From positions 32,001-96,000 of IMG/VR virus record IMGVR_UViG_3300042731_007944: a stretch of 64,000 nt of DNA. One strand, given 5' to 3'. The notes under the pieces were generated by a model. The model saw only the letters and a program-made list of their open reading frames with translations, was not told where the DNA came from and searched no databases. A program made the translations under genes and the position numbers. Position 1 is the first letter of the stretch, and each line of letters starts with the position of its first letter. Source of the stretch: a virus. Below are positions 5,181-42,440 of this stretch, one piece after another.

Positions 5181-5186
5181 ATCCAG

Positions 5187-8267: not shown

Positions 8268-8296
8268 TTTACTCTAAGTCGTGTGTTTCTTTGCCG

Positions 8297-8313: not shown

Positions 8314-8346
8314 GTGTCCGCTCATGTAAAAAGGGGGAAGGAACTG

Positions 8347-27231: not shown

Positions 27232-28311
27232 TCAGATCCTCGTCTTCACGCACTCTTTGAAGTGCAGATCCACGGCCCCGTGAAAATCCACCCCGGCGAA
27301 CTGCTGGCGGAAATCCCGAATATTGCGCCAATCACAGAGAAAGAATGTCTCTGGCTCATCATAAAACAGATGGACATACAGTGGGTGGATCTTTCCGCTC
27401 GTGACGATATCCACCACGGCGGCCTGCATGGCAGCGAGACTCGCAATATCGTTCAGCGATTGCACGTCATAGTGCAGCAGGAGATCCGCTTGCTGCGCAT
27501 ACGCCTTGTGTCGAAACATGCCGGCTGGATTCTCACTCTCCGCCCCGGTGTAGCCGTAGCCTCGCGAGGACGTCCACCAGGCGTTTGCTTCGAGTTCGCG
27601 ATAGGATCCCAGATAGAGCGTCGCCGTTTGAAAATACGACAGCGCCCCATCCACCGGGACGATGCGCCAGTACCGGTACGTCTGATCCAGGTAGAAGATC
27701 AGCTTGTGATCCGTCACGGTGATCGCCTGCGAATACGCCGGGCTGCCCCAACTGTCTGAGGAGTTCGCCTGAAGCGTCAACGTGCTTTGCCCGGCCACCA
27801 GATTGTGATTCATCAGGGCAAAGGCCGTCACCTGCTGCGCACTGCCGAGGTCAATCACGATCGGAAACGTGGCTCCTGACCGAAAAAGACTGTTGGGGTT
27901 CAAATTCAGCAGGTTTCCGGCTCCGTATTTCGCCACGGCGAAGAACTGAAAGGTGTCTTCCAGCGTGAAGTCATCGCCGACCCCCGCCTGCCAGGCGATC
28001 TTAACGCCATAATTCAGCGTGGCAAGCGTCGTGAGGGTCGTGACGCCGGTGGCTTCCCAGCCGGAGCTTTCTGAGGTCTTCCAACGATAGGTCGCCTGCC
28101 CCACAGAGACGCCGGGTGTGATGCTGTCGATCTGGGCGATGTAATCCAGGTTCTGCGCCCCGGCAAACGATCCGGCGGCAAACGCCGCCGCGCTGCCGGT
28201 CCCTCGCGTTTTCTCCACCCCGGAGACGATCCCCCCGGCCTGACTGCCTGCGGCGATCATATCCACGGACGTAATGTAGTTCGTATCCAGATAGCGCTCA
28301 GCGGTATACAT
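27232..28311 (-). CDS. distal tail-like protein with discoidin-like insert
   Basis: IDLGSAQQVT..ALMNHNL, YRYWRI; directly after tape measure. Confidence 0.6.
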   Translation of the reverse strand: MYTAERYLDTNYITSVDMIAAGSQAGGIVSGVEKTRGTGSAAAFAAGSFAGAQNLDYIAQIDSITPGVSVGQATYRWKTSESSGWEATGVTTLTTLATLNYGVKIAWQAGVGDDFTLEDTFQFFAVAKYGAGNLLNLNPNSLFRSGATFPIVIDLGSAQQVTAFALMNHNLVAGQSTLTLQANSSDSWGSPAYSQAITVTDHKLIFYLDQTYRYWRIVPVDGALSYFQTATLYLGSYRELEANAWWTSSRGYGYTGAESENPAGMFRHKAYAQQADLLLHYDVQSLNDIASLAAMQAAVVDIVTSGKIHPLYVHLFYDEPETFFLCDWRNIRDFRQQFAGVDFHGAVDLHFKECVKTRI

Positions 28312-30806
28312 CAGCGGCTCCCCCAGCGGGTGGCGGTGGACACGACGCGGCTTTCCTGGGTGCGCTGGGCGTTCGTGATCCGCTTGGCAAACGCCTCCAC
28401 GCTGCGCTCGTCCACAATATTGTTGCCTTCAAACACGACGGTCACCGGCGCGGTGTGCGCGGGTGTTGCCGCCTGCGCCTGTACCTGTGGCGGCTGATAC
28501 TGTGACCGCGTGGGCATCGTGAGCACGCCTACCCCGCTCGCGCCGTAATACGATCCGCCCCCGGCCAGCGCACTGGCAATGTTCAGGCCCCCTCCGGCCA
28601 TGTACTCGCCGCCTCCGGCCAACATCGTCGCCAGGCTCGATCCAATCGCCTGCCCGGTCGTCTTCGCCTGGGAGGTCACGCCCTGAAGACTCGATCCGAT
28701 GCCGTCCACGGACGCCACGACTTTGTCCGCCCAGGACGCCATTTCTGGGAACACACTATGCTCATAGGCTTCATCGCCCAACGCCTTCACCTCTTCTTTT
28801 GCGCCAAAAATTTTGTCTTTCAATTGTGTCATGGCGACGCCCACTTTGTCAACCATGCGTGACATGCCTTCACTCACCGCTTCCCACGCGCCTGCTAATT
28901 CATTTTTCAGCAAATCAATAATGGTCCGGATACTGTCGCCAAGCGTGCCAAACACATCCAAATACGCTTCTTTAAAGCCATAGGCGCTATCACCCATTAA
29001 TTCAAATCCGGCAACGACCGCCTGAAACAAGGGCATCGTGATTTTACGCGCCTTCTCGATCCCCCCCGCGATACCATCCAGTACCGGCCTGATCACGTCC
29101 CACGCCACACCGAACGCATCGCCCACTTTTTCAGCGAAATCCACAACTTTCGTCAACTTAGGAATCAATTCTGTGAGCGCCGGGCCGAGCGTCGTCACGA
29201 TCTCTTTGGCCGTTGTGAACGCTTTACTCAGGCCCGTTTGCCCGGATTCGTCCGGCGTGGTGTACTTCACAAACACCTCTTTAATCTGCTCGCCCAGGCC
29301 CTTCAGGGTTTCCCAGAATTTCGAGGCCCCGGCTTCAACAGAATCCCAAAGGGTTGCCCCGTGCTCTTCGACATACGTCATCCAGACTTCAAACTGTTCT
29401 GATAGCGGTCCAATGACGGCCCCGGCAAGTTCCAGGGCTTTATCATGGAGAATACCAAACACCTCATGTAATTTCTCGCTGTTCCGGCTCCACTCCTCAA
29501 ATTTGTCAACCAAGGGGTTAATGTAATTTTTGAGGAAATCCGCAAATGTTTCGGCAAATGGTTCGCCGAATGTGATCAAAATGCTATTCCAAATACTACC
29601 AAGGACTTTTTGCGCTTCTGACGCCCGATCTACCTGACGGGCATAACTGTCCATGTGTGAGTTTGCGCTAATAAATGCGTCCTCAGCAATTTTGAAAATA
29701 GATAAAAAGCCCTCTCCAATAGGCATTGTCTGATCCATTGCCGCTGCTAATGTTGAAATAGCTTTGAGGCCGATTGCTCCAAAAGCATCGGTGGCAAGGG
29801 TATTTTGATCAACCCCCGCCCTGATAGATTCAACGGACATATCCAGGCCGTTAAACGCCTCGGTGAGCAAATTCATTGTGTTGAACGAATCCTGTCCGAG
29901 GGCATATTGAATCATTTCACCGAGTGAAGAGAAGGAGATCCGGCTTTTGCCGGTGATCGCCTCTAATCTGGCAATGGCTGCCGTTCCGCCGTCTGATTGT
30001 GCCGTCAGCATTTTCGCTGCGGCGGCTAACGCATCCGTTTTGGTTGTCAGGTTGAAATAGGCACTTCCCATCTGCCGCGATGCGCTCGTGGCCGCTAATC
30101 CTCCTGAGATCAGAGCCCCGCCCCAGGCTGTCGCTTGTTCATAGCTGAGCCTCATCACAGCGTTATTTTGCCCCATTGCCTTGTTAAAATTGCTGATCTC
30201 AAGCTCGTTCGCATTCATGCTTTTGCTGACAGCATCCAGGGCAGAGAGCATATTTGCGGTAGAATCAGCGGCGAGTTTAAAAATGGTCTGGGATTTCCCC
30301 ATGTGGAGGGCGAGCTTTTCCGTACTACCTCCAAATTTATCAAGTGCAACAGCGCCAATCCCGACTTGACGTGAAAATTCGGCGATTGACTCAGCGCCTT
30401 TGATCCCCATCTGACCAGCAACCTGCGCCACTTCAAGAAGGTTGGCGGCCGTCAGACTCCCAATTGGTTTGGCGAGTTCGCGGATCTGTTTGCCGAACTC
30501 ATCAAGGGCATCGCCAGTCATGCCGGTGGTTTTTCCGACTAGCGCGAGGGCGTCATCATACGTTTGGTAGGCATCGACGGCATCAGTCACAAATTCCGTA
30601 CTGATGTCCATCATCGAGGAGGCGACATTGCTAACAAGGTCAATAATGCCACCGAAGGCTTTGGTCGCAATAGAGGCGAGTGATGTGAATGCGCCACCGA
30701 GAGAAGTGACGCCCTTAATTGAACCCCCGAGATCCAGGCGGACTTTTACGGTAATTTCATCGACTGTTGCCACTACGTGGTCGTAGAGCGCCCGTGTTGA
30801 CGCCAC
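28311..30806 (-). CDS. tail tape measure protein (TP901 type; start may be GTG 30773)
   Basis: YDDALALVGKTTG...AGQMGI...IAEF; long Ala/Gly helical protein. Confidence 0.88.
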   Translation of the reverse strand: MASTRALYDHVVATVDEITVKVRLDLGGSIKGVTSLGGAFTSLASIATKAFGGIIDLVSNVASSMMDISTEFVTDAVDAYQTYDDALALVGKTTGMTGDALDEFGKQIRELAKPIGSLTAANLLEVAQVAGQMGIKGAESIAEFSRQVGIGAVALDKFGGSTEKLALHMGKSQTIFKLAADSTANMLSALDAVSKSMNANELEISNFNKAMGQNNAVMRLSYEQATAWGGALISGGLAATSASRQMGSAYFNLTTKTDALAAAAKMLTAQSDGGTAAIARLEAITGKSRISFSSLGEMIQYALGQDSFNTMNLLTEAFNGLDMSVESIRAGVDQNTLATDAFGAIGLKAISTLAAAMDQTMPIGEGFLSIFKIAEDAFISANSHMDSYARQVDRASEAQKVLGSIWNSILITFGEPFAETFADFLKNYINPLVDKFEEWSRNSEKLHEVFGILHDKALELAGAVIGPLSEQFEVWMTYVEEHGATLWDSVEAGASKFWETLKGLGEQIKEVFVKYTTPDESGQTGLSKAFTTAKEIVTTLGPALTELIPKLTKVVDFAEKVGDAFGVAWDVIRPVLDGIAGGIEKARKITMPLFQAVVAGFELMGDSAYGFKEAYLDVFGTLGDSIRTIIDLLKNELAGAWEAVSEGMSRMVDKVGVAMTQLKDKIFGAKEEVKALGDEAYEHSVFPEMASWADKVVASVDGIGSSLQGVTSQAKTTGQAIGSSLATMLAGGGEYMAGGGLNIASALAGGGSYYGASGVGVLTMPTRSQYQPPQVQAQAATPAHTAPVTVVFEGNNIVDERSVEAFAKRITNAQRTQESRVVSTATRWGSR

Positions 30807-30855: not shown

Positions 30856-30883
30856 GAAAATCATGATTTCGTGTGTTGGCAGC

Positions 30884-30926
30884 AGTATGGCAGGGGGGTG
30901 GTGAAAAGTCAAGTGAAAATTTTCAC
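30884..30926 (-). promoter_or_regulatory. sigma70 promoter with adjacent palindrome GTGAAAATTTTCAC
   Basis: TTGACT-17-CATACT; perfect 14-bp palindrome at 30913-30926. Confidence 0.65.
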
Positions 30927-31131
30927 TGTGAAAAGAAAGGCAACTTATTTTTTTGTGCCATAGGGGAAGCGTAAAAAGGCTGACGAAATTTGTCAAGTTT
31001 TTCTCGCAAAAATTATTATAAAAAATGGGTCTTTTTTGGTAAATATACCTTGACAAAAAACCTGTTCATCTGTCAGTATTATCTATGTTGAGAGTTTAAA
31101 GAATAATATTGTTAGCAGGCTTTTGAATATG

Positions 31132-31226
31132 TGGCGTGTACCGTAGGGGTAACGAGAGGACAGACCTTGTCTCACGTACTCGCGATGCCGTGAGGCCCGT
31201 TGGTTCGATTCCAACCACGCCACCCA
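31132..31226 (+). tRNA. tRNA-like gene with non-canonical anticodon loop
   Basis: Acceptor TGGCGTG/CACGCCA plus CCCA; T arm GTTGG-TTCGATT-CCAAC; long variable arm; loop AGACCTT lacks U33/R37. Confidence 0.55.
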
Positions 31227-31246
31227 CAGAACAAGAAAAGAGGAAG

Positions 31247-31468
31247 ATGATGTCATTAGCAAAGATATTTTTTACCCAGTTAAGACTATCGCTTTGTTTG
31301 CTTTTTTTGCAACTCGTTTTGAAAATTGTTCCAAAAGATGACGATGAAGGAAAACTCATTATAGCATCAATTGGTGCATTGGCAAAAATGGAGTCGGCCT
31401 TGTTATCGTCACAACTGCCTGCTAACAAGGCCATGCAAAAGACACAGGCCGATGCCCGCAAAAATTAG
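31247..31468 (+). CDS. cassette 1 hypothetical protein
   Basis: GAGGA RBS; stop lies inside attC1. Confidence 0.5.
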   Translation: MMSLAKIFFTQLRLSLCLLFLQLVLKIVPKDDDEGKLIIASIGALAKMESALLSSQLPANKAMQKTQADARKN

Positions 31469-31542
31469 GAAATAACTATATACTGTATCGCCCGCTATCA
31501 GGTTCACTCTTTGCCTGTGCTTCTGATGGCCGGCCGTTATGA
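31420..31542 (+). repeat. attC site 1
   Basis: TGCTAAC...GCCAT..ACAGGC/GCCTGT..ATGGC...GTTATGA. Confidence 0.8.
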
Positions 31543-31553
31543 GGCTTCGTTAA

Positions 31554-31829
31554 ATGGCAATCCGATTAAGGAAAATAGAAAATACGTATGTAGCGTTATG
31601 TGCTGTTGAATCAGACGCAAAAGTTGGCGATATTTATCTTGATGATAATATGCACCATGCGCTTTATACGAAATTCGCAATAGATTTTAATAGTGAGCGG
31701 AATTGCGGTATTGTGTTTGATGAAATTGTCGCAAAACTTATGGAGTCTCAAAAGGTTCGTGATGCACAAGAAGAAGCCGAGAGGTGGAGTGCAGAACGCC
31801 GTCATAACGCTCCAAATCAGCAGAGGTGA
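31554..31829 (+). CDS. cassette 2 hypothetical protein
   Basis: ORF starts just after attC1; ends at an attC remnant (TCATAAC, 31802). Confidence 0.6.
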   Translation: MAIRLRKIENTYVALCAVESDAKVGDIYLDDNMHHALYTKFAIDFNSERNCGIVFDEIVAKLMESQKVRDAQEEAERWSAERRHNAPNQQR

Positions 31830-31832
31830 CGT

Positions 31833-32063
31833 ATGCGAGAAATAAATTTATTGAAGTGGATGCGAGATCATTGTTTGCGTTATGGCAGTATTGGAATTGC
31901 TGCAAAAAGATTCACTGTCTCGAATATTTGCTATGAATTGTTCATAGACCGCGATACCATTACGACGGAGATTGAAAAAATGGTTGAAAGTGGTTTGGTA
32001 ATGTGGTTGTTTGATAAAGATACGCTTGAATTAACAAAAAAAGGCATCCATGCAACCTCATAA
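31833..32063 (+). CDS. cassette 2 small wHTH-like protein
   Basis: IEKMVESGLV...LELTKKG; TAA stop lies in R'' of attC2. Confidence 0.6.
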   Translation: MREINLLKWMRDHCLRYGSIGIAAKRFTVSNICYELFIDRDTITTEIEKMVESGLVMWLFDKDTLELTKKGIHATS

Positions 32064-32187
32064 CAATAAAATGCACGTGAGTTTGCCCGCTGTCAGCAGT
32101 TTCCAGCGTTGCACTTCCGCTCACATGTTGTCGTAGTCCAAACGTGGTTGCCCGCTATGGCAAACCACGTGATTTTCAGCGTTATGA
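32058..32187 (+). repeat. attC site 2
   Basis: TCATAAC..AAAAT-G-CACGTG..TTTGCC / GGCAAA..CACGTGATTTT..GTTATGA. Confidence 0.85.
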
Positions 32188-32269
32188 GGCTTGTATGACA
32201 CGTCAATTTGAACTGTGGAATCAGGGAAGATGGATGGAAGAATTTCCGGCAGAGATCATTACGAATTCC

Positions 32270-32520
32270 CGCGCGCCGCAAGGCGGGGGCTTCCTGATGA
32301 GTGGGCCAGATGGAGTAGCCCCGGAATTGTCCCGCAGGCTCCCTGAGCTAAGAAAGGGCGAGAACCCTGAAAGTGAGAAGGGCTGACACTCGGAAAGGAC
32401 GAGCTAACCTGTCGTCATAAATTGATAAGAAAGGCGACCCCGGACGAGAGTAACCGGGAAATCTTGAACATATTCCGTGGGGAGTGCTCCGAGGAGAGAG
32501 CCCCGGCTGTGCAGCATCCA
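32270..32520 (+). ncRNA. candidate structured RNA inside cassette 3
   Basis: Dense short stems with GNRA-like loops (CGCC-GCAA-GGCG, CCCGG-AC-GAGA-GT-AA-CCGGG); no convincing ORF. Confidence 0.4.
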
Positions 32521-32552
32521 AAAAAAGAATGGCAGCCAAAACAGGAGCGCCA

Positions 32553-32653
32553 TCATAACAAGCAATTTCACCAGACAACGCCCGCCGTCAGGTGTTTTGC
32601 AGATTAGAAACCACGTCGCAAGCGGGCATTGCAGGTGATTTGCGGCGTTCTAA
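32553..32653 (+). repeat. attC site 3
   Basis: TCATAAC..GCAATTTCACC..GCCCGC / GCGGGC..GGTGATTTGC..GTTCTAA. Confidence 0.85.
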
Positions 32654-32673
32654 TGCCTTCAGCGGAGGATGTC

Positions 32674-33000
32674 ATGTTTGAAAAAATAGAACTTACTAAA
32701 GACAATCTTTTGGAATTTCTATCAAATAATGTGTGCGCGAAAGACTCTGAATTCAATCTTGAACTATGCGAATCAAAAGGCCGTGGCCGCAGTGGGCGTA
32801 CAGTTTTTTATATTCATGGCGAATTGATAAGCCATTTGTGGAAAACATGTCAAATTAATCGAGCCCCTCGGTTTTCCGTATTCTCCGATCAAGATGTCAT
32901 TGAAAGGGCGAATAACTGGATAAAACGAAAAAGAAAGTTGTTGGTTGGGGCATTAGAACAAACGCTTGCAAAAGACCCCAAAGACGCGGGCGAAAATTAA
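32674..33000 (+). CDS. cassette 4 hypothetical protein
   Basis: GGAGG RBS after attC3. Confidence 0.65.
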   Translation: MFEKIELTKDNLLEFLSNNVCAKDSEFNLELCESKGRGRSGRTVFYIHGELISHLWKTCQINRAPRFSVFSDQDVIERANNWIKRKRKLLVGALEQTLAKDPKDAGEN

Positions 33001-33060
33001 TCTTGTTAACGTCAGCTTCGGTGGCCGCGTCTTTGGGGCTGTTGAAGCGAGGCGTTACAT
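32953..33060 (+). repeat. attC site 4
   Basis: TTAGAAC..CGCTT..CCCCAAAGACGCGG / CCGCGTCTTTGGGG..AAGCG..GTTACAT. Confidence 0.88.
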
Positions 33061-33144
33061 GCCCTCCCCGTAGGCGTAACCGCTCATTGAAAACTTAAAA
33101 ATCTTCCTGAAATCAAAAAAACATTCAATTTGAATAAATAATAC

Positions 33145-33173
33145 TTGACAATATTCATATTGAATATTATATT
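33145..33173 (+). promoter_or_regulatory. internal sigma70 promoter of cassette 5
   Basis: TTGACA-17-TATATT with ATATTCA/TGAATAT inverted repeat in the spacer. Confidence 0.7.
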
Positions 33174-33225
33174 ACATGTGACGCTGAAAAAGGGAACATA
33201 AACACAAATTCAGGAGGATTCAATC

Positions 33226-33522
33226 ATGACAGCTTATGAAAAAAACCAGGCAATGTTAAACAAGCCAAAACAACAGTTATACCCCCTTGAAAAAGTTTTG
33301 AGAAAAGAAGGGTGGGAATACATGTATTGCGACAATACAAGCGAGGTATGGGATGTAAAAGCCCTGCTTGAAAGCGAATGTCCGGCATTGCAAGAATTGT
33401 GTCGCCCTGAGATGGGAGAAGGTGAGGTCGTCTTTCATTTTCATCAATATTGTTTGCGCAAGGGTTCGCTTGGGGTTGCTGCCTCAGTGAACACTTTTCG
33501 TACTATCAAAACGACCATCTAA
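33226..33522 (+). CDS. cassette 5 hypothetical protein
   Basis: AGGAGG RBS. Confidence 0.65.
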   Translation: MTAYEKNQAMLNKPKQQLYPLEKVLRKEGWEYMYCDNTSEVWDVKALLESECPALQELCRPEMGEGEVVFHFHQYCLRKGSLGVAASVNTFRTIKTTI

Positions 33523-33534
33523 GGGAGATTCGCA

Positions 33535-33945
33535 ATGTATCCACGTATCGCGACAGCAGCGCAGATTATGGCGGCCTTAATGGCCGCCCTCGGCTGGAAA
33601 CAAGCCGACGTAGAGCAAGAATTAGGCTTCAACCAGAGCGAAATCAGCAAGCTTCTTACTGGTGATATTGGCTTCACCAAAAAAACAGAGAAGCTTGTGG
33701 ATTTATATTTAGAGCATAAGCTTTCTGACGATCAGAAGCGTGAATTTGGATGGGAAATCTTTTTGCAGCTTCATCGCGAAGAAGTTGTCGATTTGGCGAA
33801 AAAAGCCGGATGGTTTCCGCGCTCTGGCAGCAGTTTAGAACTTGATGCGTTTTTACTGCCAGATGGTTTTGAGGCTCCGGCAGTTGAAGCGTATTCAGAA
33901 TTATGTAATGTGTTAGACGCTACAAAAATGGAGTATGGCATGTAA
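33535..33945 (+). CDS. XRE-family HTH protein
   Basis: GWKQADVEQELGFNQSEISKLLTG; stop lies in R'' of attC5. Confidence 0.75.
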   Translation: MYPRIATAAQIMAALMAALGWKQADVEQELGFNQSEISKLLTGDIGFTKKTEKLVDLYLEHKLSDDQKREFGWEIFLQLHREEVVDLAKKAGWFPRSGSSLELDAFLLPDGFEAPAVEAYSELCNVLDATKMEYGM

Positions 33946-34042
33946 CAAAGCGTTTCACGGGACTTTGCCCGCCCGCGACGTTTGATTCAGTTTTGAAACT
34001 TGGTTCCGGGGCGGGCAAACCCCGTGAACGCAGGCGTTATAA
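33940..34042 (+). repeat. attC site 5
   Basis: ATGTAAC..GCGTTTCACGGG..TTTGCCCGCCC / GGGCGGGCAAA..CCCGTGAACGC..GTTATAA. Confidence 0.9.
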
Positions 34043-34067
34043 ACCTTAGCGCCAACGGAGTACAAAC

Positions 34068-34788
34068 TTGAAAATAGGCCCATACGAAACAAATCAGATT
34101 TACACCGGAGACGCGAGAGCCTTGTCAAAGGAAATCCCTGATGAGTCTATCGACTTAATTTTGACCGATATATCAGAATATAGAAGACTATCTGTGGCTT
34201 TCAAATTTGGCTCAGAGAGTGTTGAAACCGAATTGCGCCTGTCTTATGTGGCAGGGCCAGCAGTGGCTTTCTGACACAATCTGCGCGTTGAAAGCGGGGC
34301 CTTTGGCGTATCGTTGGGTTTTGGGGTGGTATGCGTCCAACAATATGCAGATGGTCGGCAAGATAGGGCGCAAGATTGCGCCCTGTTTATGGTACGAGAA
34401 AGGCCACAGCAACCCGTTCAAAGCCGTCCGTGAAGTGGTTGACGTGCCGATCCCAGGCAAGAAGCCGCCGTTCAAATGGGCGAAGAATCCGAAAGCTCTT
34501 GCGTATTATCTCAGCAAGTTTGCAAATGAGGACAGTGTCGTTTTTGACCCGTTTTCAGGCATGGGCAGTTTACCGGCAGTCTGCAAAAGTTTTGGGATAA
34601 ATTTTCTTGCCTTTGAACTGGAAGCGGATCGCGCAGAATCAGCGCGTGAACGTTTAGCCCAAACTCCGGTGCCATTGCCTTTTAAAGTCCTGCAATCAGA
34701 GCAAACAAGCTTTGACTGTGGGGTTTATAACAATGGCATGGAGCCGGATTTGAAACCCGCCGCGTCAAGTTTTGCGGCGAACAATTAA
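34068..34788 (+). pseudogene. beta-class N4C/N6A DNA methyltransferase, frameshifted at the catalytic motif
   Basis: GDA....IPDESIDLILTD in one frame, IYQNIEDY...RVLKP...VFDPFSGMGS in another. Confidence 0.8.
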
Positions 34789-34834
34789 CAACGGTGGGCG
34801 GCGGGCTTCAAACCGCTCATGCCTGCCGTTATAA
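34725..34834 (+). repeat. attC site 6
   Basis: TTATAAC..GGCATG..TTTGAAACCCGCCGC / GCGGCGGGCTTCAAA..CATGCC..GTTATAA. Confidence 0.9.
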
Positions 34835-35130
34835 CGCATATCATACTCAACGTGGGCAGTACAACAAAAAGCTGTAAAAACGTCTTGCGCTTTCCAGATT
34901 GATGCGTTACGATGATTGGAAGAGAGGTATGGTGGCCCACACAGCACGGTTGCGCCGAGGTTTGTTCACGCTACTCCTCGTCAAATATGGTGTGGCGTTT
35001 TGTGATGGTTGGTTGCCTTTGGTCATGGCGCAACCGTCCAGTGTGGAGTCAGGGGAGTTGCTCGTATCAAAAATACGCATCGCGCCACGCTTCGCGTCGC
35101 GCTTATTTGGATTTTCGCCCCAGAAATATT

Positions 35131-35322
35131 ATGCAGTACACAGTAAATTTTTTAGAAAACGATGGAGAATACATAGGGATCTTGACAGTGAATTGTGATC
35201 ATGGTGTTAAGGTCGATGAAAGTGATCCCCGTATATTTTATGCCGACAACGTAAGTATTGCCATTGATGAGGAAATTGTTTCTGTTAAAGATGATAATGG
35301 TAATGTAGTATTCAAAGGGTAA
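35131..35322 (+). CDS. small acidic hypothetical protein
   Basis: MQYTVNF... C-terminal part of ORF 34912-35322. Confidence 0.45.
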   Translation: MQYTVNFLENDGEYIGILTVNCDHGVKVDESDPRIFYADNVSIAIDEEIVSVKDDNGNVVFKG

Positions 35323-35329
35323 ATATAAT

Positions 35330-35989
35330 ATGCCTGTTCCAGATCACGTCATCTTTGGCCCAAATTCCCAAGGCGAGGGAATCACATATGGGCAAGTTCG
35401 CGCCCTTGAAGAAAACGATCGTTACTCAGCGCTGAAGCAGAGACTCGATACTTTTCTGATTTCACAAATACACGAACTCGCCAAAGAGGAGGACGGGCAA
35501 AGAAAAGTCTACAGCCCATTTCCATTATTCTTGCTGACATGCATAGCCATAGAGGCTCTCGGGAAGGCATTGTACCGACCCTCCCAGCCTATGTCTGATA
35601 AGGACGCTCAACGTGAAGGCTTCTTTACGGTGTGTGGCAAGATCGATAAACATTTCTCCCGACCGTTGCGTAAGAAGGATAAAAAGAGACTTGATATGCT
35701 TTGGGGAGAAAATATGCAGAAAAAGCCTGAAACGTTGGCAGATGTGATATATCGTTTTGGTCGGCATACTATGGCGCACGGGTTTCGAGGAAAAGGAGTC
35801 TATCTTACCGAAGATAAGAAGATCGAATGGGAATTTATTGACTGTGCGTTATATTTAAATCCTTACTGGTTCTGGCGGACATTCACGGCTGTATACGAAC
35901 AGGGATGGGCTGCGTTGTTTGAGAATAAAGAGCCAACGAATACACTAAAACGTTCGGCTGATCAGTATTTGGCAGAAATATTGGAATAA
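35330..35989 (+). CDS. helical protein with HEPN-like RxxxxH motif
   Basis: LLTCIAIEALG ... YRFGRHTMAHG. Confidence 0.5.
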   Translation: MPVPDHVIFGPNSQGEGITYGQVRALEENDRYSALKQRLDTFLISQIHELAKEEDGQRKVYSPFPLFLLTCIAIEALGKALYRPSQPMSDKDAQREGFFTVCGKIDKHFSRPLRKKDKKRLDMLWGENMQKKPETLADVIYRFGRHTMAHGFRGKGVYLTEDKKIEWEFIDCALYLNPYWFWRTFTAVYEQGWAALFENKEPTNTLKRSADQYLAEILE

Positions 35990-36065
35990 ACCAACAAAAA
36001 GGGAAGTAATATTTAAAGGCGTTATAATAATATTGTTATAACCACCTTAGAAGGAGCAGCCAACT

Positions 36066-36389
36066 ATGGGCATGAAAAAACATACATACGTAATGACTGG
36101 GATAAAATTGACACCTAAAATGCTTGAGACTCAAATGATTGATATTTTCAGTGACAAACTGCTTCCACTTGTTGAAGGTCATAAAGATGTTTCGTTGTCC
36201 ATTGTTTATGGTGAAGGAAGTAGCGTCTATGCTGGAAAGATTGTTGCTAAAAGTGAACCATATAGCGATGATGTATCACAAGAGCTACAATTCCCGTCTC
36301 GTCAGGAAGTGGCAAATGAGTTGAGGAAATATGGGTTTAAAATTGAATCCTATTCCGTTAATAACTGGTTTTTCGATATTTGGCGATGA
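36066..36389 (+). CDS. cassette hypothetical protein
   Basis: AAGGAG RBS; stop abuts attC7. Confidence 0.65.
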   Translation: MGMKKHTYVMTGIKLTPKMLETQMIDIFSDKLLPLVEGHKDVSLSIVYGEGSSVYAGKIVAKSEPYSDDVSQELQFPSRQEVANELRKYGFKIESYSVNNWFFDIWR

Positions 36390-36493
36390 TTATAACAATG
36401 CGTTTCAAGCGACTCCTGCCCGCCACGACGCTTTGGATAAGCTTTGAACTTTAGTTTCAGGCGGGCAGGAGCGCCTGAACGCAAACGTTAGGG
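36390..36493 (+). repeat. attC site 7
   Basis: TTATAAC..TGCGTTTCA..CTCCTGCCCGCC / GGCGGGCAGGAG..TGAACGCA..GTTAGGG. Confidence 0.9.
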
Positions 36494-36619
36494 CGCATAT
36501 CGCTTGTAGCATAGTTGGTTGGTACGAGCAGTGAAAAATAACTTGCGCCCGTAACCAATCCATGCCATATTAATTCGATTTGAGATAATGGAGATAATAT
36601 ACAACAAAAGGAGAATGAT

Positions 36620-37354
36620 ATGAAAACATATCGTGTGATTTTCATTATTGTCATAGCATTATTTTTATCTACTTCATGTTCAAACAAAAAGCAATGGGAA
36701 CAGGCAATTAAAGAACGCGATGATATTATTCTGGGACTTCAGCAACAATTACAGGAGACACAGAGACAACTCGGCACTTGTCAAGAAGATCTCGCTTCGG
36801 CACAAGAAGCCTTAACGGCTTCCCCTTCATCGGAACCGGAAGGGTATACGCCAACACACTATAATTCAGTGTATGATGTTCTGCATGAATGGTATTCTTA
36901 CAGCACCGATGACGGGACATTCAAGACCATATCAGAGAATCCGCTACATATTCAGATTGTTCCTACTTTCATGCAAGATGAATATCCCGACATCAACCGT
37001 AATGACGTAAAAACGGCACTCCTTGAGGCCGTCTATCGGACATTTATCCATACGGATACAAAGGCATTGACCGTAACATGTACCCCGCAATTAATCCAGA
37101 ATAATAATGGAGATTTTGAGACCAAACCGCTTGAAAAATATGCAAAAACGATCACTGTTTCGAAAGAAATGGCCGTAAAGATAGCGGAAAGCCATCTCAA
37201 CATATCAACTCTTTCCGAATTGGTCATGGACCAGAAGGTAGGAGGGATACTCATTACTGACGAATGGACGGACAAATTCAAAATGGTAATTTATGGGGAA
37301 GATTACAACACACCGGATTTGTTAGATACAATTTTTTCTAAGCTTGAGGGATAA
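36620..37354 (+). CDS. lipoprotein with coiled coil
   Basis: Hydrophobic leader ending LSTSC; AAGGAG RBS. Confidence 0.65.
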   Translation: MKTYRVIFIIVIALFLSTSCSNKKQWEQAIKERDDIILGLQQQLQETQRQLGTCQEDLASAQEALTASPSSEPEGYTPTHYNSVYDVLHEWYSYSTDDGTFKTISENPLHIQIVPTFMQDEYPDINRNDVKTALLEAVYRTFIHTDTKALTVTCTPQLIQNNNGDFETKPLEKYAKTITVSKEMAVKIAESHLNISTLSELVMDQKVGGILITDEWTDKFKMVIYGEDYNTPDLLDTIFSKLEG

Positions 37355-37369
37355 ATAGATCGTGTTATA

Positions 37370-37467
37370 ATGAGGATAGGGATCGCGACCTGAACGGGCC
37401 GATTGCTCCTGTCATCGGCTCTTCCTCATCTTTATAAATTGTCAGGAGAAGAAATCGACGATAGGAG
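37370..37467 (+). ncRNA. candidate C4-like antisense/cis-regulatory RNA
   Basis: TATAAT then ATGAGGA/TCCTCAT closing stem; loop CTCCTG complementary to downstream CAGGAG and TAGGAG. Confidence 0.4.
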
Positions 37468-37486
37468 TGTTCATGGTTGTTGTGCT

Positions 37487-37777
37487 ATGCCAGTAAAAGA
37501 AGTCCATCATGAAAATATTGTGCTATTTGGTTCAACTGTGATATGTTGGCATTATCCAGAGATTTATCACCCGAAGAAACAGGATAGCATTATTCTTGAA
37601 TTAGCACATATTCGTTCCGCAAATAATCTTCATATCACGTTTGATGCAAAACGAGATGGCTATGTTATCTCTCAACAGACAATATTTTCGTGGCCTCTAG
37701 ATGATGATATTTGCGATCCAGGTTGGCAAGAAGTGGCCTTTATTGAAGCGTGGCAACCAAAACAACGATATTTCTGA
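37487..37777 (+). CDS. hypothetical phage protein
   Basis: ORF from MPVKEVH. Confidence 0.5.
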   Translation: MPVKEVHHENIVLFGSTVICWHYPEIYHPKKQDSIILELAHIRSANNLHITFDAKRDGYVISQQTIFSWPLDDDICDPGWQEVAFIEAWQPKQRYF

Positions 37778-37799
37778 AGAAAATGAACAACATCGCATA

Positions 37800-38021
37800 A
37801 TGGTGTCTACGATTCTTTATAATATCTTTGAGGAAGAATCGCAAGACGTGTTGACATGGTATGAAGAAAACTTAAAAACCGGTTTAAATCAAGACGACCG
37901 GTTAGAAAAATATGCACAAGCCCAGGATCAAGACCAATTTGTTCGTTTGGTTATTGTCACAAATGACAATGGATATTCTATAAGCATTGAAATTACGCCT
38001 GAATCAAAAGAGAAGAAATAG
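37800..38021 (+). CDS. hypothetical protein
   Basis: ORF from MVSTIL. Confidence 0.35.
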   Translation: MVSTILYNIFEEESQDVLTWYEENLKTGLNQDDRLEKYAQAQDQDQFVRLVIVTNDNGYSISIEITPESKEKK

Positions 38022-38142
38022 GTGCTGGAAGTAAAAATAGATAGTGTTCTAAAAATGATAATAGGATCGTATCAGATGGATAACTCTGGTCTAAACTCTC
38101 TAGGGTGATAGGATAAGAGCCTGTAGGGGGGATAAAATAAAC

Positions 38143-38769
38143 ATGAAACAAACCATAGAAGAACAACTCGAAGAGGCCAATATCGATGCACATTGTGCGG
38201 TCAGCCTCCATAAAGCTCACATTGCCAAATATGAGAAGCTTCTAACTGCTGTTGATGCATTATCTGTTTGTGTCCCCGTTGGGTTTTTTGGTGTCCAAGT
38301 GGCCTCTATTCAATTTCCCGCCGTAGCAACTTTCTTGGCGAGTGTCATTAACCCTCTCTTATCCGCCGCTCTCTTAATCTTGGTACTTTTTACCCTAGTG
38401 ACGCAATCCCGTGCTAAACTCAAGCAGCATCAGCGCTTTTTATCGGAAGAAATTATCGTTATTCGCGAAATAAAAGAACTGTTGTCAGGGGAGACAATCA
38501 CTTCTGAAGCGACTAAGCGTATATTAGATTGGGCGGCACGCTTGGCACAAGATGAAGAACAGATGTTTTCAAAGTTATCTGAATTGGAAAAACGAAATTA
38601 TTATCGTCTTGGGTTGCGGGCTATTGGAGATCCGACGGTAGTCTGCCCGATCTGTGGTGCATCTCCGTATCACTATCAGAAACCTCAAAAAAACGAAATG
38701 TGTCAAACGTGTGGGAATACGCCGGGGCATCAACTCACAAGGGGGACAGAATATGAGTTGGGCAGTTGA
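38143..38769 (+). CDS. two-TM (SLATT-like) protein with C-terminal CxxC...CxxC ribbon
   Basis: Paired TM helices, then CPICG...CQTCG; resembles mobilome CxxCx(11)CxxC proteins. Confidence 0.55.
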   Translation: MKQTIEEQLEEANIDAHCAVSLHKAHIAKYEKLLTAVDALSVCVPVGFFGVQVASIQFPAVATFLASVINPLLSAALLILVLFTLVTQSRAKLKQHQRFLSEEIIVIREIKELLSGETITSEATKRILDWAARLAQDEEQMFSKLSELEKRNYYRLGLRAIGDPTVVCPICGASPYHYQKPQKNEMCQTCGNTPGHQLTRGTEYELGS

Positions 38770-38941
38770 CGAGTTTAAAAAGTGGTACACTCAATTGCCA
38801 GAATCCGAAAAACGGCAATTGCAGCAATTTTTATCAAAGGGGTTGCCCGGTGGCCCACCAGACAAATTTGGAGTGCGGTTAGGTCCTCCTCCAGCGCAAA
38901 AGAAAGGAAGTGTGTGTCCGACATGCGGAAAACCGTGGTAA
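38753..38941 (+). CDS. small protein with CPTCG
   Basis: Overlaps the upstream stop; AGGGGG RBS. Confidence 0.5.
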   Translation: MSWAVDEFKKWYTQLPESEKRQLQQFLSKGLPGGPPDKFGVRLGPPPAQKKGSVCPTCGKPW

Positions 38942-39093
38942 CAAATACTGGTCTGATCAATATGCGAATTCTCGCCATTCTTCTCAGCATTCTTGGATGG
39001 TTTTGGTTGGAGGGTGTGGCTTGGCTCGGAATCATTTTGGCGAACGTATTGTTGTTATGGCAAGATTTACGCTCTACAAATTGGAAGAAGCCA

Positions 39094-39426
39094 TTATGCC
39101 GTTGACGGTTCTTGACCCGCTTCGCCCTTGCGCCGGTACAGGTCTCGAAATTCGATCCAGCGCGTGCGGGTAACGGTTATGATTTCTTGCGGTTGCTGTA
39201 CGGGTGACTCTGCTTTTATTTCCGGTACTGAAGAAGCTTCTTGAGAGGGACTGGCGAGTTGCAGTTTCAGGTCATTGATTTCTTGCTTGAGGTTTCGGAT
39301 CGTTACATCGCGGGATTCGACAAGCTGCTTATAATGATCGACGTCATTCCCTATGCTACCGATCACGAAGAAAAACAGGACCGCAATAACGGCCAGGACG
39401 ATTGTTACAATCTTCCATTTGTTCAT
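39094..39426 (-). CDS. membrane-anchored coiled-coil protein
   Basis: N-terminal TM; AAGGAGG RBS; TTGACA-17-CATCTT promoter. Confidence 0.6.
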   Translation of the reverse strand: MNKWKIVTIVLAVIAVLFFFVIGSIGNDVDHYKQLVESRDVTIRNLKQEINDLKLQLASPSQEASSVPEIKAESPVQQPQEIITVTRTRWIEFRDLYRRKGEAGQEPSTA

Positions 39427-39512
39427 ATCGCATCCTCCTTTCAAGAGAAGATGCGAAACACTGACATTTCTGTCAAGAATTTTTTAAAACAGGCTTTTTT
39501 GTCTCCTGATTT

Positions 39513-39932
39513 TTAGACGCCAAACTGACGAATCTTCGCGATTCCATCCGCGATCCGAGCTTCACTCACTTGCTCTAACTCAGTGATCGGGTCGTGGTTC
39601 TCATCGAATCTCATTCCCGCCGGCGCGGTAAATACTTTCACGACGGCGGTTATTTTTAGATACGCGGCCAGGCGATCCGCGTAATTGACGATGCGTTGCG
39701 CCTTTTTTAACTCGCGGCCAACGTATGCGTACACGGTGACGTATTTGCGAATGTTTTTCTCATTCCGGAACCAGATGGATTGTTTGTTGCTGCCCTTATG
39801 GGTCCGGGCGGTGGTCTCTAAGAAGGCTTCAATGCTGTTTAAGAGGTCGGTGTCAACCGCTTGTACTTTTGGTTGCGGTTGTGCTTTTTGAAAATTTACC
39901 TGAATCACATTGCCGTGTACTGAGTATTCCAT
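39513..39932 (-). CDS. hypothetical protein
   Basis: GGAGG RBS; TTGACA-17-TATATT promoter at about 39985-40013. Confidence 0.65.
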   Translation of the reverse strand: MEYSVHGNVIQVNFQKAQPQPKVQAVDTDLLNSIEAFLETTARTHKGSNKQSIWFRNEKNIRKYVTVYAYVGRELKKAQRIVNYADRLAAYLKITAVVKVFTAPAGMRFDENHDPITELEQVSEARIADGIAKIRQFGV

Positions 39933-40133
39933 GTTGTTCCCCTCCGGTGTTTTGTGTTATAGTATTTTCTTGTTACTATATTATAAATATAGTACTTTTT
40001 TATAATTTGTCAATAGAACCACCTGTTTTTTTTATAAATTTTTATAGTTTTTTTTTGACAAAAGAGGCCCGAACAGTTATTTTTATGAAAATTATTTATC
40101 AAATAAGGCTTTTTCTTTATAGGGGGGGGTTCT

Positions 40134-40328
40134 ATGGCAAGACGTGAAGACTCGAGACAGCTTATTATACAACTAAAACCTGAACTACACCGATGGTTTA
40201 AAGCTTATTGTGCTCAACGGGGCGTATCTATGAATAGCCACATCGCAACATATCTTTATGAGTTGCGACAGGCTGAGGAAGAAAAAACCTTGCGCCTTCA
40301 AAAATTAGCAAAGGATGTTGAGGAGTAA
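40134..40328 (+). CDS. Arc/ribbon-helix-helix regulator
   Basis: LIIQLKPELHRWFKAYCAQRGVSMNSHI. Confidence 0.7.
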   Translation: MARREDSRQLIIQLKPELHRWFKAYCAQRGVSMNSHIATYLYELRQAEEEKTLRLQKLAKDVEE

Positions 40329-40332
40329 CCCT

Positions 40333-41040
40333 ATGAACCGTCTATTTTTTGTGAGTCTGTTTATTTTGTTCGCCGTCTCCGTGTCAACGGCGGTCATCGA
40401 ACCGCCTCGCGTATTCAGCGAGAGCGGGACCGTGGTTATGGTTGTGGACGGCGACACGATTAAGGTCAAGATCCGGAACACGGTAGAGACGATCCGGCTG
40501 ATCGGGATTAATACGCCAGAGACGAAAGACCCACGCAAACCGGTGGAGTGCTTCGGGAAAGAGGCATTTGAACATGCAAAGAAGCTGCTCGAAGGAAAAA
40601 AGGTCAAGCTGAAATCTGATAAGACACAGCAGAACCGGGACAAATATGATCGGATGCTCCGGTACGTGTGGATTGGCGGGAATGAGCTTGTTAACCACAT
40701 GATGATAGCAGACGGGTACGCCTTCGAATACACCTATGAGACGCCGTATCTTTATCAAAAGGAATTTCAGGAGGCTCAAAAAGACGCGAAAGAAGCCCAG
40801 CGCGGCCTGTGGCATCCTGACACCTGTGCCGGGGAATTGAAACCGGAGAAACAGGACGCCACGCCAACACCAACAGCCACGCCGAAACAGAACACGTCAG
40901 CATTCTCCTGTACGCCGAAAAAGACGTGTGGCAAGATGACGTCCTGTGAAGAAGCCTATTATCATCTAAACACCTGCGGGAATAGCAGTCTAGATAGGGA
41001 TAAAGACGGCATTCCGTGCGAGTCCATTTGTGGAAATTGA
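40333..41040 (+). CDS. exported thermonuclease (SNase) with Excalibur Ca-binding domain
   Basis: VVDGDTI, IRLIGINTPE, DKYDRMLRYV, GLW; C-terminal LDRDKDGIPCE. Confidence 0.9.
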   Translation: MNRLFFVSLFILFAVSVSTAVIEPPRVFSESGTVVMVVDGDTIKVKIRNTVETIRLIGINTPETKDPRKPVECFGKEAFEHAKKLLEGKKVKLKSDKTQQNRDKYDRMLRYVWIGGNELVNHMMIADGYAFEYTYETPYLYQKEFQEAQKDAKEAQRGLWHPDTCAGELKPEKQDATPTPTATPKQNTSAFSCTPKKTCGKMTSCEEAYYHLNTCGNSSLDRDKDGIPCESICGN

Positions 41041-41207
41041 GCCATGAAACACTGTTCCGCGTAAAATTCTCTGGACGGTTCGTGAAGATCGCGACACGTC
41101 GCGTTTTGTTCAAGACAAGCAAAAATCCGGTGTGTCGTCTGCCGATTTCTCAGCAGCGATTGAACGTTTGAATCAGGGATGCGAGGAAGGACAAGAGGGA
41201 GCAGACC

Positions 41208-41459
41208 ATGTTAACACGTAGAAAGAAGAACCTGACGCGCACCTTGCGCCTGTCGTATTCGGAGGCGGATCGGCTACGGCAAAAGCTGTATTCCGATGTA
41301 GACCGGCTCTCGCTGTCTGACGTGAAGAAGCTGATCACGGTTTTGGATGACGTGTATCCGGAGATCACGAAAAGGACGCAACAATGGCCATGGCGTCTGG
41401 CGCTGACCTGCTTTGGGGCGGGCATGGGGCTTGTGGTACTGGTACTGCTGATAGTATAA
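41208..41459 (+). CDS. small protein with C-terminal TM
   Basis: GAGGGAG RBS; hydrophobic C-terminus. Confidence 0.5.
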   Translation: MLTRRKKNLTRTLRLSYSEADRLRQKLYSDVDRLSLSDVKKLITVLDDVYPEITKRTQQWPWRLALTCFGAGMGLVVLVLLIV

Positions 41460-41589
41460 GGGGGTGTAGCTCATCGGAGGAGCAGGCGGGGAGGGTGCTA
41501 GATGAGTCCAAAGGGCTGTGACACGGCCAGCCACATTGAACGCTCGACGATCCGTAACAGGAAAGTCGGTTCGACTCCGACCACCCCTT
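41460..41589 (+). tRNA. tRNA-like gene with an expanded central domain
   Basis: Acceptor GGGGGTG/CACCCCT, D stem GCTC/GAGC, T arm GTCGG-TTCGACT-CCGAC; about 80 nt between D and T arms; no CCA. Confidence 0.55.
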
Positions 41590-41614
41590 TACCCGAAAAT
41601 TCTTTTTACACAAC

Positions 41615-41965
41615 AATGCTCCTTGCGCAAGCCCTATACCACTCGGGGAGTTGGCGAGAGGTGCACACTCTTGATAGCGTGGGCCCGTCCGGAATGGCAT
41701 ATGGCAAGACCGATGACGCTATGCTCCACTGGTGGAAGGATGTGTGCGAGGCTGCACGAGTCCAGACGGCGCTTGAACGAGAGATTGCATGGAAGTACGG
41801 GCTTGAACGATTACGGTGTTGAGCGAGACAAGAACATCCCTATACTTAATGCGAGACATCCGAGGATATTTGGCTTCCATGTCGCAAGGAAGACCTGCAT
41901 TTGCGACAATTCCGGAAACCGTGCCCAATGGTAGACGGGAAGAATTAAGGCCGCACACCCTCCCG
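41615..41965 (+). ncRNA. candidate large structured ncRNA
   Basis: Several long-range complementary pairs and GNRA-like hairpins; no credible ORF. Confidence 0.45.
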
Positions 41966-42011
41966 CGACCAGCATTAAACCAAGACCTTTTTGACAGTTC
42001 CCTTCTTCATC

Positions 42012-42440
42012 TTATTCCATGCTAAACGCCAACCGACAGCGGCAGTTGATGCGATCCCCTGGGTGGATGATCGGATCACGTGGATGCATCGGACCTGGCC
42101 AACCCTTGAACTGCACAGAAAACCGTTCATCAATCCGGCGTTCTTCCAGGTGTCGAAAGTTATGTTTTTTGCGGACCCGTGAATCCCGCCGTGTGAGCCA
42201 CGTTTTGAACAAAAATCCTGCCTCTTTTGCCCGTTTCCACCCCGCGTCATCGTGCGGCGAGGGAATATCACTGAATCCCCAGGATCGCAATTTCGCGGCC
42301 ATGGCGTTCAAATAGTGTTCTACGAGGAAACCGTGTTCCGTCTGAAATCGGTCAGGGGGAACCGTCTGCACGAGCATCGCGTGAAAGCGTGCGTACTGTC
42401 CGAAAGACTGCTGCAGAAGGGTGTCAAGTGGAAGGGTCAT
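42012..42440 (-). CDS. short head morphogenesis (MuF/SPP1 gp7-like) protein
   Basis: TWLTRRDSRVRKKH ... HP.D...INCRC. Confidence 0.7.
   Translation of the reverse strand: MTLPLDTLLQQSFGQYARFHAMLVQTVPPDRFQTEHGFLVEHYLNAMAAKLRSWGFSDIPSPHDDAGWKRAKEAGFLFKTWLTRRDSRVRKKHNFRHLEERRIDERFSVQFKGWPGPMHPRDPIIHPGDRINCRCRLAFSME

Follow-up and report, generated by a model that had tools for sequence, protein, structure and literature searches.

An integron gene-cassette array within the tail genes of a phage genome that also encodes an integron integrase

Background

Integrons are usually seen as bacterial devices. The 10,705 phage genomes screened by Qi et al. 2023 (PMC9892861) contained 3 complete integrons, 1 In0 element and 17 clusters of attC sites lacking an integron integrase (CALINs), and the integrase IntI1 was shown to recombine phage attC sites; the 3 complete phage cases all look like recent host or clinical captures. 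Here we analyse a window of 64,000 nucleotides, bases 32001-96000 of the 104,987-bp viral contig IMGVR_UViG_3300042731_007944 of IMG/VR, in which a block had been described, from its letters alone, as an array of integron cassettes inside a phage tail operon (the sequence-only reading). This block, array B, extends over 31111-36496 and comprises seven attC sites and one degenerate site of 27 nt, all on the plus strand. It was confirmed to be a genuine integron gene-cassette array within the tail-gene module, and we consider it quite probable that it is a second cassette platform of the phage's own integron. Positions are those of the window unless they are given as contig positions.

A phage-borne integron with a second array is a rare arrangement, and it has already been described, the closest precedent being the Shewanella prophage M16-3 (Qi et al. 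2023). In M16-3 as well as here, one IntI and two arrays headed by attI lie on a phage-derived element, and the second array of M16-3 is bordered by tail, capsid and terminase genes (PMC9892861). Nevertheless, M16-3 is a 40-kb P2-like cryptic prophage, whereas the genome studied here is of about 105 kb, looks complete and carries around 16 cassettes. The IntI of M16-3 is 95% identical to the Shewanella oneidensis IntI, which implies a recent capture from the host, and the IntI found here is 36% identical to that of M16-3. Furthermore, unlike in M16-3, there are 53 kb between the two attI copies, which are in inverted orientation, and an array is also found in a distant relative of the phage.

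The other described systems that resemble this locus can be classified into three groups:

i) Functional temperate phages with intI, with or without cassettes (PMC9892861), namely the Vibrio anguillarum phages Va_90-11-286_p16 and PF430-3_p42, and phage P1. These phages carry subsets of the sedentary chromosomal integron of the host, or clinical class 1 integrons. Their IntI are 39-44% identical to the IntI found here, and they have a single platform which is located outside the tail module.

ii) CALINs of the virulent phages TJE1, P12002L and PH101. As in array B, their attC sites are co-oriented and without a neighbouring intI, the cargo includes methyltransferases, and in these phages the sites were recombined by IntI1 (PMC9892861). 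However, these clusters have 2-3 attC sites, with neither an attI nor an IntI in the genome, whereas array B has 7-8 attC sites, an apparently full attI and the cognate IntI on the same replicon.

iii) Bacterial sedentary chromosomal integrons with defence and toxin-antitoxin (TA) cassettes (bioRxiv 10.1101/2024.07.02.601686; PMC13108822). The likeness lies in the related attC family within each element, in the mostly ORFan single-gene cassettes and in the TA-like, restriction-modification and exclusion cargo. In contrast, the integron studied here is on a phage genome and its arrays are far smaller.

Results and discussion

The attC sites and the cassettes of array B

The seven attC sites that had been placed at 31420, 32058, 32553, 32953, 33940, 34725 and 36390 are all present as located. 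Each of them has a core ending in AAC at its start and a core beginning with GTT around 90-130 nt further on, with imperfect inverted arms between both. A covariance model, R1, was built from these seven sites by means of a MAFFT alignment and an RNAalifold consensus, and it scores them at 51-94 bits, all on the plus strand. The cassettes are the following (R1 scores in bits; open reading frames are abbreviated as ORFs and helix-turn-helix as HTH):

31112..31536, plus: cassette B1, with a tRNA-like element (31131-31226) and a 73-aa ORF (31247-31468); attC 31416-31545, 51 bits
31537..32181, plus: cassette B2, with two small ORFs (31554-31829, 31833-32063); attC 32054-32190, 84 bits, fold z-score -5.7
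32182..32647, plus: cassette B3, with a 63-aa ORF (32195-32386); attC 32549-32656, 85.5 bits
32648..33054, plus: cassette B4, with a 108-aa ORF (32674-33000); attC 32949-33063, 76.6 bits, own start matched 10/10
33055..34036, plus: cassette B5, with a promoter match of its own, a 98-aa ORF and a 136-aa HTH (XRE-like) ORF; attC 33936-34045, 93.6 bits, own start matched 10/10
34037..34828, plus: cassette B6, with an N6/N4 DNA methyltransferase over two frames (34068-34274, 34207-34788); attC 34721-34837
34829..36035, plus: cassette B7a, with a structured element at about 34870-35100 and ORFs 35131-35322 and 35330-35989; degenerate R''/R' site 36018-36043
36036..36496, plus: cassette B7b, with a 107-aa ORF (36066-36389); attC 36386-36496, the last of the array, 93.5 bits, own start matched 9/10

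In attC sites the structure is expected to be conserved while the sequence is free. When the bottom strands were folded as single-stranded DNA, all seven sites formed a single long R/L stem, imperfectly paired, with small bulges and a variable tip, and in six of the seven the z-scores against shuffled controls ranged from -4.1 to -6.6. Compensatory changes were found by RNAalifold in 12 of the 19 consensus stem pairs.

Regarding sites outside the training set, R1 matched 8 sites beside the intI gene of the contig, 13 sites in the related phage G001 (see below) and 3 in the Shewanella phage M16-3, in the cassette region that lies upstream of its annotated intI and on the same strand as the array. 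As R1 was built from the window's own sites, it is such independent matches that carry weight. On the whole contig there were 15 sites (E 1e-8 to 1e-22), all of them oriented as expected from their own attI. With the filters off, R1 gave no further attC between 28000 and 46000, including the remaining part of the low-GC island at 36497-42000. The strict pattern RYYYAAC...GTTRRRY missed every real site, because this consensus is too narrow, and a search of Rfam over 30800-37000 returned only a sub-threshold tRNA-Sec and a chance match to IS009 (18 bits against a gathering score of 117).

R1 also detects multi-site arrays in bacterial metagenome-assembled genomes of many phyla. Similarly, a DNA pattern of this attC family matched 22 loci in many phyla, including Desulfobacterota, KSB3/Vecturithrix, Spirochaetes and Acidobacteria. 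The attC family was rejected as a marker of the host, since this type is widespread in the environment.

Cassette ends and their own starts

A cassette made by an integrase is recognised by an R'' box that is the reverse complement of the first bases of the same cassette, a feature that results from the cutting of the circular form between G and TT. Counted over 10 bases, the R'' boxes of B1 to B6 match their own starts at 10, 9, 8, 10, 10 and 10 positions respectively (the 9/10 of B2 was scored by eye and not by script); in B1, for example, the start GTTAGCAGGC stands against the R'' GCCTGCTAAC. The last block divides at the degenerate site 36018-36043 into two cassettes with 9/10 each, the R''-like box of B7a being GCGTTATAAT. 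When this array and the second one of the contig (array A, see below) were pooled, own pairs matched at 6.5 of the 7 positions beyond GTT, against 3.3 of 7 in the non-own pairs. None of 100,000 permutations reached the observed total, and for the window array alone 5 out of 100,000 did. Altogether, 13 of the 15 cassettes of both arrays match their own start at 9-10 of 10 positions. The match between cassette ends and their own starts, which had been put forward as a sign of real integrase events, is thus borne out by the own-pair counts and the permutation.

An intact integrase 53 kb away and a probable second attI

The array had been described as having no integrase. None is found in the 64-kb window; nevertheless, the search of the full contig that had been proposed as a check, here with NCBIfam TIGR02249, found an intact IntI at contig 9924-10883, 53 kb from array B. 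The match (contig 9945-10868) has 329.8 bits against the curated cut-off of 265, which none of 14 well-known control genomes passed. A call of 'no integrase' from a window is unsafe when the integrase may be, as here, 53 kb off on the same replicon.

The gene is a stop-free frame of 319 aa. It aligns over its full length to the Vibrio cholerae integrase VchIntIA (PDB 2A3V, E 8e-70), including the integron-specific insertion of about 50 residues, whereas the alignment of XerD chains is restricted to the C-terminal ~60 residues (query 249-310) and that of XerA/XerC-like chains to the N-terminal ~175. The motifs of the catalytic R-K-H-R-H-Y residues (LRISE, GKGDKDR, HVLRH, GH and KIYLH) align with those of VchIntIA. 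Among 5.8 billion proteins the closest IntI has around 50% identity at most; the identity is 36-44% with every phage-borne IntI in the GenBank phage records and 44% with IntI1.

The contig has what characterizes a complete integron, that is, an IntI with the IntI-specific domain and intact catalytic residues, attC sites and G|TT cassette boundaries. It does not belong to the mobile integron classes 1-5, given the 44% identity to IntI1, the lack of a transposon context and that no resistance genes were found. Neither is it a sedentary chromosomal integron, as it has a full phage gene set, the contig ends join within an attC and no host flank was detected.

Between the tape-measure gene and array B lies a probable second attI with a stump of intI:

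30941..30960, minus: truncated intI remnant, start codon and about 6 codons; the alignment to the intact intI locus stops around 20 nt into the gene
30961..31113, plus: attI copy 2, with divergent promoter-like sites and the crossover G|TT at 31111; it shares 150 nt without a mismatch with the attI beside intI

Window 30941-31117 is an inverted copy of the AT-rich attI/promoter region of about 175 nt together with the first 7 codons of intI (BLAST, contig 9767-9944 against 63117-62941, 97% identity over ~175 nt, with a perfect core of 150 nt). On the cassette side the identity ends exactly at the GTT crossover, and on the other side 7 codons into intI. Consensus matching gave a Pc-like promoter TTGTCA-18-TATTAT at 30990-31019 (+) and a Pint-like promoter TTTACC-17-TATAAT at 31043-31015 (-), both being consensus matches only. 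The breakpoint of the intI remnant sits at a GTT (…TAAG|TTGCC), from which we draw no claim. An exact 25-mer of the attI had no match in the IMG/VR or JGI metagenome contigs. A CTG-N9-CAG stretch seen by eye in the attI region was considered as a LexA box; it misfits the Escherichia coli consensus and we make no claim on it.

Taken on its own, array B agrees with the definition of a CALIN (at least 2 attC sites and no intI within ~4 kb), the nearest intact intI being 53 kb away. However, in contrast to typical CALINs, it keeps an apparently complete attI. This bears directly on the catalyst. The sequence-only reading had proposed a CALIN that relies on a host IntI in trans, and in favour of it, intI is missing from the 64-kb window and from the 4 kb next to the array, and IntIs recombine heterologous attC sites, as IntI1 did on the attC sites of phages (PMC9892861). 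Nevertheless, an intact IntI is encoded by the phage itself, and the attI that matches it heads array B; therefore a host IntI is not needed and the phage's own IntI would be the obvious catalyst. Moreover, according to PMC2095811, an attI is recognised by its cognate integrase only, and neither a host nor a host integron was identified, the closest IntI anywhere being around 50% identical. We thus regard dependence on a host IntI as very improbable.

In the reading that we prefer, array B as a second platform of the phage's own integron, the IntI from the single intact gene would serve both platforms in trans, its substrates being the two attI sites and the folded bottom strand of every attC. 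It would excise cassettes as circles (attC x attC) and re-insert them at either attI (attI x attC), and the cargo would be expressed from the Pc-like promoters in each attI and from promoters inside cassettes. The sequence features, the family to which the IntI belongs, the marks of the cassette boundaries and the break in synteny are shown directly, and the present-day recombination, the expression of the cargo and the origin of the duplication are what we infer from the sequence. Array B would most likely have been a complete integron once, whose intI was later deleted.

Array A and the ends of the contig

Array A starts at attI copy 1, beside intI, and runs on the minus strand through 9 or more attC sites:

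contig 9344-9208, 8902-8795, 8464-8354, 7806-7666, 6536-6389 and 4181-4036, minus: six attC sites matched by R1
contig 102378-102233 and 101046-100900, minus: two further attC sites matched by R1

At the first six the own starts are matched at 10, 10, 10, 10, 10 and 9 of 10 positions. The contig ends within one more copy of a 146-nt attC, since 104918-104987 equals 4033-4102 (100%) and 1-74 equals 4106-4179, and the first 10 bases of cassette A7 are all matched by the R'' of this terminal attC. This 146-nt attC has three copies on the contig, including 4036-4181 and 102233-102378. The record is probably a circular or circularly permuted genome that was cut by the assembler within this three-copy repeat. 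When the contig ends are joined, array A therefore spans around 14 kb with 9 attC sites, and more cassettes could be hidden at the contig break.

The cargo of array A includes a protein with a T5orf172/MUG113 domain, a SocA/Panacea antitoxin with neighbouring ORFs, an AntA antirepressor, SieB and a 790-aa fusion of HsdR-N, N6-methylase and specificity parts. These kinds of cargo are known from phages and from integrons alike.

The place of array B in the phage genome

As had been noticed, the array lies in the structural module of a phage, with the tape-measure gene and the tail-completion gene on its two sides:

28311..30806, minus: tail tape-measure gene of 831 aa, left flank of the island (PHROG tape-measure families, E 2e-14 to 1e-10)
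30884..30924, minus: phage-type promoter before the tape-measure gene, TTGACT-17-CATACT, with the upstream element GAAAATTTTCAC
36497..42011, no strand assigned: rest of the low-GC island, attC-free, with a lipoprotein-like ORF, small ORFs and an SNase/Excalibur nuclease, around 5.5 kb of accessory genes
42012..42952, minus: right flank, with a MuF-C-like ORF and the tail-completion (Neck1) gene at 42437-42952 (phrog_26, E 2.8e-22; phrog_2468, E 5e-13)

The Pfam family PhageMin_Tail matches the tape-measure gene weakly. The GC content of the island at 36497-42011 is 0.45, against 0.52-0.56 in the structural genes; intI has 0.52, like the phage core, and the cassettes have 0.41-0.45. Between the tail-completion gene and the tape-measure gene there are 11.6 kb of lower-GC DNA, which hold the MuF-C-like ORF, the ~5.5 kb of attC-free accessory genes and array B with its attI, whereas in the relative G001 the same distance is around 140 nt. 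Array B together with the ~5.5 kb of low-GC accessory genes is thus an insertion in an otherwise conserved junction.

The contig also encodes a terminase, portal, protease, major head, adaptor and tail tube genes, and besides them DnaB, Dam, a PD-(D/E)XK nuclease, a C5 methylase and a separate phage-type integrase. The large terminase is distantly Mu-like (23% identity). From this gene set, the contig of about 105 kb looks like a temperate phage of the siphovirus type.

This setting bears on a possible artefact of assembly, either a chimera of a phage with a bacterial chromosomal integron or a mis-resolved repeat. The contig comes from a metagenome, and it has a perfect inverted repeat of 150 nt and three copies of the 146-nt attC, which would be consistent with such an artefact. 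Nevertheless, phage structural genes in a collinear order stand on both sides of array B, and the stretch that joins the intI remnant to the tape-measure promoter is a unique sequence that includes a promoter motif specific to the phage. The two attI copies differ at 4 positions, therefore they are two separate loci. Furthermore, the alternative isomer still puts an attI-headed array at the tail site, and a related phage closed by direct terminal repeats (DTRs) has an array too. An artefact is, of all the explanations considered, the one to which we give the least credit.

The promoter motif mentioned above has 19 nt, GAAAWTTTTCACTTGAC, and five copies on the contig, all on the minus strand:

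window 30906-30924, 53901-53919 and 55332-55350; contig 13002-13020 and 1273-1291, minus: GAAAWTTTTCAC element fused to a TTGAC -35 box

The copies precede the tape-measure, protease and portal genes, an early operon and antA, which lies in cassette A7, and the copy of the tape-measure gene directly adjoins the intI stump. The GAAAWTTTTCAC/TTGAC element is a candidate for a phage-specific promoter or activator site, with one copy within an integron cassette.

Signs of decay

Several observations weigh against array B as a working second platform of the phage's own integron. R1 was trained on the window's own sites, so its matches to those sites prove nothing. The fold of attC1 has a z-score of only -0.7, no better than shuffled sequences, and the own-start match of B3 is only 8/10; both of them are signs of decay, as are the split methyltransferase of B6 and the degenerate 27-nt site. 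No close relative with the same platform was found in which the order of the cassettes could be compared. Finally, the perfect inverted repeat of 150 nt might give a wrong isomer in the assembly, with the arrays swapped between the attI copies, although a swapped isomer would still leave an attI-headed array in the tail module.

The degenerate site 36018-36043 is a palindromic mini-site with R''/R' only, to which R1 gives only 9.9 bits. The last 13 nt of attI recur without a difference in its right half, AATAATATTGTTA, and the mini-site may be a junction of the delta-attI type, as it is described in PMC12901181. Regarding the methyltransferase, the C-terminal part matches PF01555 with 28 bits and a DPPY motif was not seen, by reading the sequence, in either of the two frames; this gene (34068-34788, overlapping frames) is likely a pseudogene.

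Such signs could mean that array B is a fossil, that is, an inactive remnant of an old duplication or of mosaic recombination among phages, a moron island with attC scars and no present traffic. The adjacent intI reduced to 7 codons, the methyltransferase divided over two frames, the boundary shrunk to 27 nt and the poor fold of attC1 would fit this explanation, and the array of G001, accompanied by a decayed integrase, shows that arrays can outlive their own IntI. However, the genome has an intact IntI, and six of the seven attC sites keep strong hairpins and exact core matches. In addition, the attI core is identical to the intI-linked copy at 150 of 150 positions, whereas a pair of paralogous cassettes (see below) has diverged to 81%, a difference which argues for a recent duplication, gene conversion or selection on attI. 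A fossil is thus unlikely, though it deserves some weight.

The cargo of array B

The cargo had been described as phage-like and different from resistance genes. This stands for most of what was named, that is, a weak XRE HTH, the split N6/N4 methyltransferase, the tRNA-like element and a conserved structured element, the cassettes being mostly ORFan. The label 'HEPN-like', given to the ORF 35330-35989, found no support: it had no match in Pfam or PADLOC, and in the protein atlas it belongs to an uncharacterised family.

The tRNA-like element of B1 (31131-31226, +) is reported by ARAGORN as an odd 95-nt tRNA-Gly(acc), and it matches the Rfam tRNA-Sec with 23.9 bits, under the gathering score of 47. 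Its acceptor stem has 7-8 bp, the T-arm is canonical (GGTTCGATTCC), the variable arm is long and the CCA is encoded. However, its D-arm is degenerate and the 'anticodon' loop has only 5 nt, and it is probably not a decoding tRNA. The ORFs of B2 have no significant Pfam match. In B5 there is an internal promoter match, TTGACA-17-TATATT, at 33145-33173, and its 136-aa ORF matches HTH_31 with E 2.8e-5, below the cut-off. The 193-aa ORF of B6 (34207-34788) has 30% identity to a cassette gene of G001.

The structured element of B7a (~34870-35100, +) has 81% nucleotide identity to the start of cassette A5 (contig 7637-7403, -). In both cases the stems are conserved, the loops are variable and a promoter-like stretch lies upstream; the element is followed by CACGCATCGCGC repeats, in 2 copies against 3, and both cassettes start with the same GTTATAACGC core. 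It belongs to no Rfam family, and neither a reverse transcriptase nor another obvious partner was identified nearby. This paralogy would indicate an exchange between the arrays or draws on a common pool of cassettes.

A related phage with an array, and the search for other relatives

An alignment of the tail tube protein retrieved the phage G001 (IMGVR_UViG_3300035670_000271), of 54,492 bp, with 127-bp DTRs and a CheckV completeness of 100%. It shares the head, adaptor, tube, tail-completion, tape-measure, distal-tail and portal genes, with 23-47% amino-acid identity. The 13 R1 matches of its array lie on one strand (26531-35837), within a region of 26531-36865 that also includes the IntI-like gene described below, and five of its cassettes match their own starts at 10/10 and four at 8/10. 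The array is headed by an attI-like junction, AATAATT|GTTA, against AATAATATT|GTTA in the phage studied here. Beside the junction there is a divergent IntI-like gene of 243 aa, which keeps only the N-terminal SAM-like domain PF13495 and in which no catalytic domain could be recognised. The cargo includes three N6/N4 methyltransferases, one of them fused to a Mrr-type nuclease domain, and an island ORF that lies outside array B (38782-39105) has a 42% match within the array of G001.

The searches for other relatives gave little. The IntI as a single query against viral contigs retrieved only IMGVR_UViG_3300043112_000046, a viral-binned fragment of 5.6 kb, with 35% identity; its IntI scores 294.5 bits, above the TIGR02249 cut-off, and R1 finds no attC on it. 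No viral contig was retrieved when the tail tube protein was used as a single query, and its alignment gave nothing against genome contigs and only two short fragments against metagenomes. For the major head protein, only 4 relatives were retrieved at E<1e-20.

The comparison with G001 suggests that integron arrays recur in this phage lineage at different genomic positions and with differing decay of the integrase, that is, an association at the level of the lineage. Beyond this, integrons might be a long-standing feature of a rare group of temperate tailed phages and not a one-off capture from a host, a possibility that we put somewhat short of even. The following observations were counted for a long-standing residence:

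i) No known IntI exceeds 50% identity to the clade of this IntI, whose GC content is that of the phage core.

ii) A single IntI is accompanied by two inverted attI platforms, one of them wedged in the late structural operon.

iii) At least one cassette, that of antA, uses the phage's own promoter motif.

iv) A 13-cassette array with a decayed intI also occurs in the distant relative closed by DTRs, where it occupies another genomic position.

If this is true, the integron would be the phage's device for shuffling morons, namely exclusion, methylation and regulatory genes and RNA cargo. The case stands apart for its apparently intact and probably circular genome, its deeply divergent integrase, the ~16 cassettes on two platforms, one of which interrupts the tail-gene module, and the relative with an array. 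It offers a concrete system for three questions, namely if an integron benefits the phage that runs it (superinfection exclusion, anti-restriction methylation, regulators), if two attI sites can be served in trans by a single IntI, and if cassettes travel between hosts by means of phages. That phages ferry cassettes, which the sequence-only reading had also proposed, is plausible, and the idea was published in 2023 (PMC9892861).

Other observations

Among the GenBank records, KX853513 (Virus Rctr41k, from a denitrifying anaerobic methane oxidation (DAMO) enrichment culture) includes a gene with the annotation 'xerD', which shows 39% identity to the IntI described here over 96% of its length. 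In 4680-10103 of this record, three R1 attC sites lie downstream of 'xerD' on the same strand (6637-6770, 9301-9437 and 9967-10103). This may be an unannotated integron with the intI co-oriented with its cassettes. The record is absent from those listed in PMC9892861.

In the attC-free part of the island, 40315-41040 (+) encodes a secreted protein with the staphylococcal-nuclease fold and an Excalibur calcium-binding domain (Pfam). Among the distal tail and accessory genes, 18768-20018 (-) encodes a TnpB of the IS605 family (HTH_OrfB, OrfB_IS605 and a Cas12f1-like TNB domain). It is the only insertion sequence (IS) element, 11 kb off, and its nearest named relatives are from Desulfobacterota, with 56-61% identity, which hints at a host in this phylum. 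Finally, an ORF of 921 aa without a PHROG match lies between the head and adaptor genes (47754-50519, -), and it contains an internal repeat of around 330 nt with 77% identity (contig 80934-81262 against 81756-82084).

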